DNA of 64,000 nt, taken from positions 7,769 through 71,768 of the IMG/VR virus record IMGVR_UViG_3300033067_001299. One strand, 5' to 3'. This DNA is from a virus (Duplodnaviria > Caudoviricetes). Position numbers and translations under genes: made by a program. The notes beneath the pieces are model-generated. The model was not told the origin of the DNA and searched no databases. It saw only the letters and a list, made by a program, of their open reading frames with translations. Each line of letters begins with the position of its first letter. Position 1 is the first letter of the stretch. This document shows positions 2,205 to 3,071 of the stretch, piece by piece.

Positions 2205-3071
2205 ATGCTGCAACACGACATTCGCGTCATCGTGCGCGGTGCCTACGACATCCAGGCGCTCCGCATCCAGATGGGCAACCGGATCGTCGCCAACTTCAAG
2301 GCCAAGCTCGGCCAAGCTCCGAGCGAGTCCGAAGACGAGCTGGACGACGACGCCAAGCAAATCCTGAGCGACTTGCGCTCCAGCTACAAGAAGATCACCG
2401 ACGGCGTCAAAAGGTTTCCGAAGCACAATAGCTTCGTCGGCGACGAGATCATCTCAAGCTTCACAGAACTCTGTCTCGTCGGGCAGTACGTCGATCTGGA
2501 AGACGACGAGATCCGTCACTTCAAGAGGATCGATCAGGCGCTAGAAGACGTTCCGATCTATACCGAGTACCTGAAGCACGTTCGCGGCATCGGACCAGCG
2601 ATGGCCGGCGTGATCGTGTCGGAGATCGATATCTCGAAGGCGCGCTATCCGTCGTCTCTCTGGAAACTTTGCGGCCTTGATACCGCAGCAGACGGCAAAG
2701 GCAGAAGTCGACGCGCCGAACATCTCGTCAAGGTGAAGTACAAAAACAAGGATGGAGTCGAGTGCGAGCGCAACTCGATCACGTTCAATCCGTTCCTGAA
2801 GACCAAGCTGATCGGCGTGCTGGCGAACAGCTTCATCAAGCTCTCAAACCCGATCTACGCTCCGATCTACCGAGACTACAAGCACCGTCTCGAAAACCAT
2901 CCGGCGCACGCAGAGAAGACCAAAGCGCACCGCAACAACATGGCGAAGAGATATATGATAAAATTTTTCTTATTGAATCTTTACAAGGCGTGGCGCGAGA
3001 TCGAAGGTCTCGAACTGTCGACTCCGTACCACGAAGGAAAGCTCGGAATCGTCCACAGCAAAGCTGATTAG
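2205..3071 (+). CDS. tasA: IS110/Nop-domain RNA-binding protein, TIGR-associated, nuclease-less (TasA-like)
   Basis: HhH-like GIGPAMAGVIVSEI...SSLWKLCGL and C-terminal YxxYKxRL...AHRNNMAKR match the IS110 Transposase_20/Nop region. The N-terminus is a coiled coil with no RuvC/DEDD or HNH motif. The array starts at its stop codon. Confidence 0.8.
   Translation: MLQHDIRVIVRGAYDIQALRIQMGNRIVANFKAKLGQAPSESEDELDDDAKQILSDLRSSYKKITDGVKRFPKHNSFVGDEIISSFTELCLVGQYVDLEDDEIRHFKRIDQALEDVPIYTEYLKHVRGIGPAMAGVIVSEIDISKARYPSSLWKLCGLDTAADGKGRSRRAEHLVKVKYKNKDGVECERNSITFNPFLKTKLIGVLANSFIKLSNPIYAPIYRDYKHRLENHPAHAEKTKAHRNNMAKRYMIKFFLLNLYKAWREIEGLELSTPYHEGKLGIVHSKAD

Follow-up and report, generated by a model that had tools for sequence, protein, structure and literature searches.

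Faure et al. (2025, Science; PMC12045711) described TasA as the solo-Nop form of the TIGR-associated (Tas) proteins, found that FpTasA binds 36-nucleotide (nt) tigRNAs, and proposed that TasA acts by blocking transcription or replication and in competition between mobile elements. For MbTasA, Xu et al. (2026; bioRxiv 10.64898/2026.09.09.750476) reported a target-specific shift of DNA in electrophoretic mobility shift assays and guide-dependent, reversible repression of a reporter and of a chromosomal gene, and PlTasA has been visualized on unwound target DNA by cryo-electron microscopy (10.64898/2026.08.11.744272). Here we analyze a TasA encoded in a 64,000-nt stretch of tailed-phage DNA (IMG/VR record IMGVR_UViG_3300033067_001299, positions 7,769 to 71,768; hereafter the window), for which a first-pass annotation had proposed a guided binder or repressor devoid of a nuclease. 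The assignment to TasA and the lack of a DNA nuclease domain hold, with fold, sequence and locus in agreement, but the idea is not new, the guided binder or repressor being the published working model for these proteins. We posit that this TasA, as a self-processing dimer, carries out RNA-guided, cleavage-free occupancy of foreign DNA, a reading to which we assign a probability of about 0.7. The features on which it rests are as follows (window coordinates):

2115-2143, plus strand: sigma-70-type promoter of the tasA-array unit (consensus scan)
2205-3071, plus strand: tasA, coding for a 288-residue solo-Nop TIGR-associated protein without a DNA nuclease domain (open reading frame, Pfam, profile and model)
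2205-2543, plus strand: coiled-coil part of the Nop scaffold, residues 1-113 (DSSP on the model, profile and structural alignment)
2544-3026, plus strand: Nop RNA-binding core, residues 114-274, with the GIGPAMAG motif and a beta-hairpin at 175-191 (PF02371, profile and model)
3027-3056, plus strand: probable metal-independent pre-tigRNA processing loop, residues 275-284, Y-H-E-G-K-L-G-I-V-H (conservation and alignment to SpTasH)
3066-3441, plus strand: TIGR array of the dual-repeat type, with a period of 36 nt and about 10 units (repeat analysis)

Fold and domain limits of TasA

The tasA gene runs from an ATG start, preceded at a distance of eight bases by the ribosome-binding site GAGGAG (2192-2197), to a TAG stop at 3069-3071, and codes for 288 amino acids. 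It is a real gene, since 2,080 homologs were recovered at E<=1e-3, nearly all of them 280-300 residues long; the cluster representatives of TasA homologs number 2,492. By these comparisons the window TasA is typical of its clade, which is large and phage-borne.

An AlphaFold2 model built on 57 homologs (mean predicted local distance difference test score, pLDDT, 91.4; predicted template modeling score, pTM, 0.84) allowed the N-terminal region to be delimited. The first-pass annotation had described the first ~120 residues of the 288-residue protein as helical and acidic, with no DEDD/RuvC or HNH motif, and the model, the charge count and Pfam all bear this out. Residues 1-120 hold 22 D/E against 16 K/R (net -6, isoelectric point 5.0), the acidity coming from residues 36-60 and 61-120 and the segment 1-35 being basic (isoelectric point 10.9). 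DSSP assigns helices to residues 2-34, 48-65, 86-113 and 117-121 of the model, the first two being separated by an acidic linker of low model confidence (residues 35-47). The model has no beta strands ahead of those at 175-191, so neither an RNase-H/RuvC sheet nor a beta-beta-alpha HNH fold is possible in this region. Pfam returned no nuclease family for TasA, only a weak, sub-threshold match to PF02371 at residues 121-170 (19 bits against a cut-off of 21.3), and no CxxC motif was found in the protein.

A profile of the family matched the solved structures of TasR (PDB 9MTY, E 6e-27) and TasH (E 4e-19). It aligns the QxxRIxxGNR helix of TasA (residues 15-32), which only about 14 residues precede, with TasR 121-138, and the Nop core with TasR 145-306 and TasH 140-297. 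The structural alignments of the model give the same picture:

TasR (9mty): Z 20.3, root-mean-square deviation 1.6 A, 191 aligned residues; model 4-273 on TasR 112-303
TasH: Z 19.4; model 1-284 on TasH 66-298
IS621: Z 14; model from residue 1, IS621 from residue 126
Nop5: Z 7.5; model from residue 1, Nop5 from residue 135

ISCro4 (Z about 14) and Prp31 (Z about 7) were also among the structural matches in the Foldseek ranking. Since the alignments start at TasR 112 and TasH 66, the modeled TasA begins where the nuclease domains of TasR and TasH end. Thus, the protein displays the coiled-coil and Nop fold of the Tas proteins as a solo Nop with no accessory nuclease domain: profile and structural alignment place no N-terminal RuvC domain of the TasR type in it, structural alignment, Pfam and the CxxC search no N-terminal HNH domain of the TasH type, and the DEDD RuvC-like domain (PF01548) that precedes PF02371 in IS110 transposases is likewise missing from it. 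A coiled-coil dimerization element has been described for all Tas proteins (PMC13421893), and, going by the model, the helical acidic N-terminus is this element of the Nop scaffold and not a lost or hidden nuclease.

These observations bear on two further explanations. The first is that a cryptic DNA nuclease resides in the N-terminal 120 residues or elsewhere in TasA. Candidate catalytic residues for it do exist, given that in the 57-sequence alignment E102 is invariant and D142, D159 and H173 are at least 90% conserved. Nevertheless, apart from the lack of a Pfam nuclease match and of a CxxC motif, the N-terminal region is purely helical and superposes on the coiled-coils of TasR, TasH, IS621 and Nop5, and its conserved motif is common to the non-nuclease part of TasR. 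Moreover, the stem-loop MbTasA has no nuclease domain, and what it produces is reversible repression rather than loss of the target (bioRxiv 10.64898/2026.09.09.750476). We hence regard a cryptic nuclease as very improbable. The second is that TasA is a functionless remnant of an IS110-family transposase, as could be read from its match to phrog_4285, which is labeled 'transposase' (E 5e-32), from the weak PF02371 match, and from one source that names a homolog an IS116/IS110/IS902 transposase. This is effectively refuted by the thousands of full-length homologs that share the same 285-residue architecture, by Z-scores of 19-20 to TasR and TasH against 14 to IS621, by the absence of a DEDD domain, and by the conserved promoter and adjacent guide arrays presented below.

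The longest homologs were also inspected: Hint/LAGLIDADG inteins are present in all nine of those with at least 505 residues from a dedicated search, as well as in each of the four longest cluster representatives, and no fused nuclease domain was found among them. The intein-bearing homologs of 516-879 residues are P0122, P0131, P0192, P0204 and P0272-P0276; in the four that were examined, the insertion point lies close to query residue 156-158, adjoining two Nop-core positions, G157, which is invariant, and D159, which is highly conserved. Neither of the two main TIGR-Tas papers uses the word 'intein'. Another homolog of 487 residues, P0236, is a natural fusion in which two AT-hook-like GRPRK motifs and a TasA core are followed by the C-terminal domain of the RNA polymerase alpha subunit (PF03118, E 1.5e-14). 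Its domain composition hints at a transcription-linked role for some TasAs.

Guide array, targets and proposed mode of action

Immediately 3' of tasA lies an array of alternating edge and loop repeats, in which each 36-nt unit consists of the edge repeat AGCGAGCCA, a 9-nt spacer A, the loop repeat AGAnnnCCA and a 9-nt spacer B. The stop codon of tasA falls within the first edge repeat, which is truncated at its 5' end, and the final unit is degenerate. Eight copies of the edge repeat AGCGAGCCA stand in the array, compared with an expectation of 0.67 for the whole window. AG opens and CCA closes both repeats, such that AGCGAGCCA and AGAnnnCCA follow the reported rule by which boxes D and C covary between the two repeat types. 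We further fetched 80 related tasA loci from viral contigs, and in 66 of these a 36-nt array with the same or very similar repeats was detected beside tasA. The guides themselves turn over: the relative L081, whose TasA is 86% identical and whose edge and loop repeats are identical, shares none of its ~10 spacer pairs with the window (window 3102-3397 versus L081:6898-7260). Some spacers of one array resemble each other, as in L083, and this resemblance suggests that units duplicated and then diverged. In the same L083, a lambda-like phage with a TasA 72% identical to that of the window, an edge-like GCGAGCCA and a loop-like AGACCCCCA stand just upstream of the tasA start (L083:2900-2950), as if a partial unit preceded the gene.

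The promoter at 2115-2143 combines TTGATA, a 17-nt spacer and a TG-extended TATAAT, with 11 of 12 consensus matches. Both hexamers, the extended -10 element and the ribosome-binding site are kept in L081, L082 and L090, and the sequence between them diverges. Given this near-consensus, conserved promoter and the overlap of the array with tasA, the two look like an autonomous transcription unit.

A further link between protein and array is the C-terminal loop. In TasH, Y289 and H296 form a metal-independent catalytic dyad that cuts pre-tigRNA (PMC13421893; bioRxiv 10.64898/2026.09.09.750476), and a Tyr/His dyad is reported to be kept in dual-repeat systems and absent from stem-loop ones (bioRxiv 10.64898/2026.09.09.750476). 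The window TasA has such a C-terminal Tyr/His loop in its sequence. Y275 is invariant in the 57-sequence alignment and K279, G281 and H284 are at least 90% conserved; Y289 and K293 of SpTasH align with Y275 and K279. Hence, TasA probably retains a ribonuclease site and, given this, the statement that it has no nuclease is limited to DNA nucleases.

Reported 8-nt 3' overhangs, together with the C-5 rule, led us to a target layout in which spacer A comes first and spacer B comes next in reverse complement, and the scans covered the phage genome and viral contigs; in genome and metagenome collections of 596 Gb, any 18-mer is expected about 17 times by chance. With at most two mismatches, none of the 10 guide pairs matched the 71.8-kb genome in either orientation with gaps of 0-2. 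At most three mismatches gave two matches in the correct orientation and one in the wrong one, which is the level of chance. The one notable self-match was the following:

28136-28153, no strand assigned: self-match of unit 3, 15 of 18 contiguous bases (genome guide scan)

Its mismatches fall at positions 1-3 of spacer A, and the site is inside an unannotated 348-residue open reading frame of the structural module, for which no PHROG, Pfam or Atlas match was found. This match raises the alternative that the system regulates its own phage, with unit 3 binding at 28136-28153 to time or damp the expression of a structural-module gene. The match is in the expected target orientation, and 1 of ~390 composition-matched control 18-mers also reached 15, which places p at roughly 0.005-0.03 for 10 units. 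Further, TasR bound and nicked a fortuitous site in wcaD of E. coli (Faure et al. 2025, PMC12045711) that shows this same pattern of pairing, 6/9 bases of spacer A and 9/9 of spacer B. On the other side, only one of the ten units is involved and a control equaled it, the orientation counts are those of chance, and the site lies in the middle of the gene instead of at a promoter; the lack of shared spacers between close relatives also argues against a conserved circuit, and the exact unit-3 18-mer is found nowhere in the viral contig collection. We therefore take the self-match as suggestive only, and self-regulation as improbable. The corresponding exact scans of viral contigs recovered unit 1 twice and unit 4 once, all three matches with gaps of 1-2 nt; we judge these sparse matches of units 1, 3 and 4 to be nothing above chance and uninformative on natural targets.

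In contrast to such a circuit, the complete spacer turnover, the lack of a self-match within two mismatches, the variable presence of the cassette as a whole in related phages (see below) and the strong dedicated promoter favor foreign targets. The guides are thus most likely aimed at foreign DNA, namely competing phages, plasmids or the host, and not at the phage's own genes.

For this TasA itself, the present analysis shows its fold and domain limits, the 36-nt array next to the gene and the dedicated, conserved promoter. The mechanism that we propose to connect them draws on characterized relatives. By analogy with these, tasA and the array would be transcribed together from the promoter at 2115-2143; the protein would dimerize via residues 1-113; its C-terminal Tyr275/His284 loop would cut the precursor within the edge repeats; and one 36-nt tigRNA would be kept per TasA dimer. 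Spacers A and B would then each pair with a different strand of an 18-bp DNA site. As there is no DNA nuclease, the complex is expected to act by occupancy, along with bending of the DNA, and so to block transcription or replication of the DNA that it occupies.

Several points weigh against this proposal. The scans of the phage genome and, for units 1, 3 and 4, of the viral contigs did not find a natural target, and H284 is located two residues after the column of H296 of TasH. DNA binding and repression have been demonstrated for the stem-loop TasAs only, i.e. MbTasA and PlTasA. For dual-repeat proteins the evidence is weaker and in part negative: fusions of FpTasA to activators gave little or no activation in human cells, and ParTasR deleted for its RuvC domain was inactive, from which the authors concluded that RuvC contributes to DNA binding (10.64898/2026.07.30.739400). 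From the ParTasR and FpTasA results it follows that a solo-Nop dual-repeat protein may bind duplex DNA only weakly by itself. Nevertheless, we consider that the silencing model likely applies to the dual-repeat subclass. That the dual-repeat phage TasAs are not simple stand-alone repressors, and instead need a non-neighboring factor on the acidic tip of the coiled-coil or act on partly matched sites, appears to us a rather unlikely proposition. If such partly matched sites were used, as with the 15/18 match of unit 3, the system would be an RNA-guided timer of phage late genes.

Neighboring genes and phage setting

The window is part of a single 71,768-bp contig representing a tailed-phage genome. 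The following genes define the surroundings of the tasA-array unit:

1-285 (full gene at genome positions 7727-8053, L088): H-NS-like gene (PF00816)
3454-4461: gene directly 3' of the array, with CBM96 and collagen triple-helix repeats, tail-fiber-like by PHROG
35687-38158, minus strand: large terminase (PHROG match)
56912-57379, minus strand: RuvC-like open reading frame of a Holliday-junction resolvase family (phrog_159 match)
58063-59907, minus strand: primase/helicase

The tasA gene stands at the end of a plus-strand block with a UvrD-like helicase, a single-stranded DNA-binding protein and the H-NS-like gene, and of the remaining large genes that were identified, most are on the minus strand; the window also encodes tail-fiber-like and collagen-like proteins.

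An alternative to stand-alone occupancy is that TasA is a targeting module only and recruits in trans an enzyme that cuts or modifies the target, whether this be the helix-turn-helix (HTH) protein encoded upstream, the RuvC-like protein, a small HNH protein or a host factor. There are certain pointers in its favor: the acidic, low-confidence linker at residues 35-47 is a possible docking site; removal of RuvC abolished the activity of TasR, such that a bare scaffold may need help on duplex DNA; TasA-ParB operons are found in the literature (PMC12045711); and in a few related loci a small HNH open reading frame lies 22 nt upstream of tasA. The contextual evidence goes the other way. Clustering all open reading frames within 3 kb of tasA revealed no conserved neighbor, in line with Faure et al. 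(2025, PMC12045711), who saw no clear association of TasA with other proteins. The two largest neighbor 'families' obtained from this clustering proved to be spurious open reading frames translated from the arrays themselves.

The first-pass annotation had named two specific partner candidates, the HTH gene at 1777-2118 and the RuvC gene at 56912, and neither survives comparison across loci. The HTH gene is weakly HTH_17-like by Pfam, and tblastn detected no homolog of it within 6 kb of tasA in the 80 viral loci, so that the suggested check of its co-occurrence with tasA yields 0/80. The homologs of the HTH protein in a collection of 5.8 billion proteins form 7 clusters, to be compared with more than 2,000 for TasA. 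By Pfam, the 58 distinct open reading frames immediately upstream of tasA are heterogeneous, with an HTH family in only one or two and others including DNA ligase, DNA polymerase A, ThyX, Dam, Toprim and HNH. The HTH gene does accompany tasA in L081 (HTH 77%, TasA 86% identical) and L090. L089 (L089:481-2297 versus window 1717-5795) has a 49%-identical HTH homolog followed by a 109-residue gene and then by homologs of window 4787-5795; it lacks tasA, the array and the collagen-like gene, and keeps the flanking minus-strand genes. From the few HTH clusters and the arrangement in L089, we conclude that the association of HTH with tasA is synteny in a single phage lineage, and that tasA and its array form an accessory presence/absence cassette. 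An HTH_23 gene upstream of tasA in L083 was considered as a counterpart of the HTH gene and rejected as unrelated, being alike only across the 20-residue HTH motif.

The RuvC-like open reading frame retains the acidic motifs LDLG, YEEV and DESDA. It matches the phage resolvase family phrog_159 (E 1e-24) and, weakly, bacterial RuvC, and does not match TasR. It is 54 kb away from tasA, on the other strand and in the replication module, where it adjoins the primase/helicase gene, and no homolog of it was found within 6 kb of tasA in the 80 viral loci; hence, we see no link to tasA. The small HNH open reading frame beside tasA, considered as a 'split TasH', was likewise rejected, as its position varies and it has no similarity to the HNH domain of TasH. 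Taken with the absence of a conserved neighbor, recruitment in trans is an unlikely explanation, and we retain cleavage-free occupancy by TasA itself.

Certain other features of the phage deserve mention. The H-NS-like protein (E 2e-10) is encoded ~2 kb upstream of tasA, and the relative L081 has one too. The product of the gene at 3454-4461 has an apparent signal peptide, as judged by eye, and we found nothing resembling a terminator between this gene and the array. At 822 residues, the large-terminase open reading frame is unusually long, its terminase matches are split between residues 4-129 and 469-791, and residues 124-222, in the intervening part, show similarity to a PHROG whose annotation is thymidylate synthase; this may represent an insertion or fusion. 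A nucleotide search with 8 kb against a phage collection returned collagen-repeat matches only. The same phage is present in sample runs X1 and X2. In X1, contig records 3 and 4 (on window 2235-2624) are diverged tasA genes, one of them deeper (33x versus 8x), and several TasA-bearing elements therefore coexist in that sample.

Comparison with known systems

The window TasA adds one phage TasA to a family of thousands, for relatives of which cleavage-free repression has already been published. The value of the locus is as a test case for duplex binding by dual-repeat phage TasAs and for their natural targets: it is compact, with promoter, gene and 10 guides in 1.3 kb, it comes with full genome context, and it has natural comparators in L081, with the same repeats and different guides, and L089, in which the cassette is absent from between the same flanking genes.

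Its nearest counterpart, compared here by description, is FpTasA of Flavonifractor plautii, likewise a solo Nop with a downstream dual-repeat array, 9-nt spacers and 36-nt units (PMC12045711). The family is expected to bind 36-nt tigRNAs (PMC12045711). The window TasA differs in being phage-borne and in belonging to a large clade with AGCGAGCCA / AGAnnnCCA repeats, and the box D dinucleotide of this clade is AG as against the UG described for TasR. MbTasA and PlTasA are also nuclease-free coiled-coil and Nop dimers with dual-spacer guides, for which R-loops on both strands, target binding and reversible repression have been reported (10.64898/2026.09.09.750476; 10.64898/2026.08.11.744272). Their tigRNAs are of the stem-loop type and they lack the C-terminal Tyr/His loop, whereas the window TasA is of the dual-repeat type and keeps it.

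TaTasR (PDB 9MTY) and SpTasH (PDB 9W03, 9W04, 21KL) have the same scaffold, with 22-29% identity over the aligned residues, and share with the window TasA the QxxRIxxGNR helix, the GIGP motif, the Tyr...Lys-Leu-Gly...His loop and dual-repeat arrays. Unlike it, TaTasR bears a RuvC domain (residues 1 to ~111, catalytic D11) and SpTasH an HNH domain (residues 1 to ~65, H54). More distantly, the IS110 bridge-RNA recombinases (IS621, PDB 8WT6) and archaeal Nop5 possess a homologous coiled-coil and Nop-like RNA-binding domain and, as here, a guide RNA with two guide segments. The IS110 proteins recombine DNA and have an N-terminal DEDD RuvC-like domain, and Nop5 of the box C/D ribonucleoproteins recruits fibrillarin for RNA methylation; the window TasA is devoid of both the DEDD domain and the domain used by Nop5 for this purpose.

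Finally, type IV and type V-M systems, Cas12k and engineered dCas9 offer a functional analogy (drawn in PMC12045711) in their RNA-guided occupancy of DNA without cleavage, on mobile elements, which is also what we expect of this TasA, though the proteins are unrelated. The TIGR-Tas system of the window further differs from CRISPR in having no protospacer-adjacent motif and no adaptation genes, and in an 18-bp target that would be read on both strands by two 9-nt spacers.

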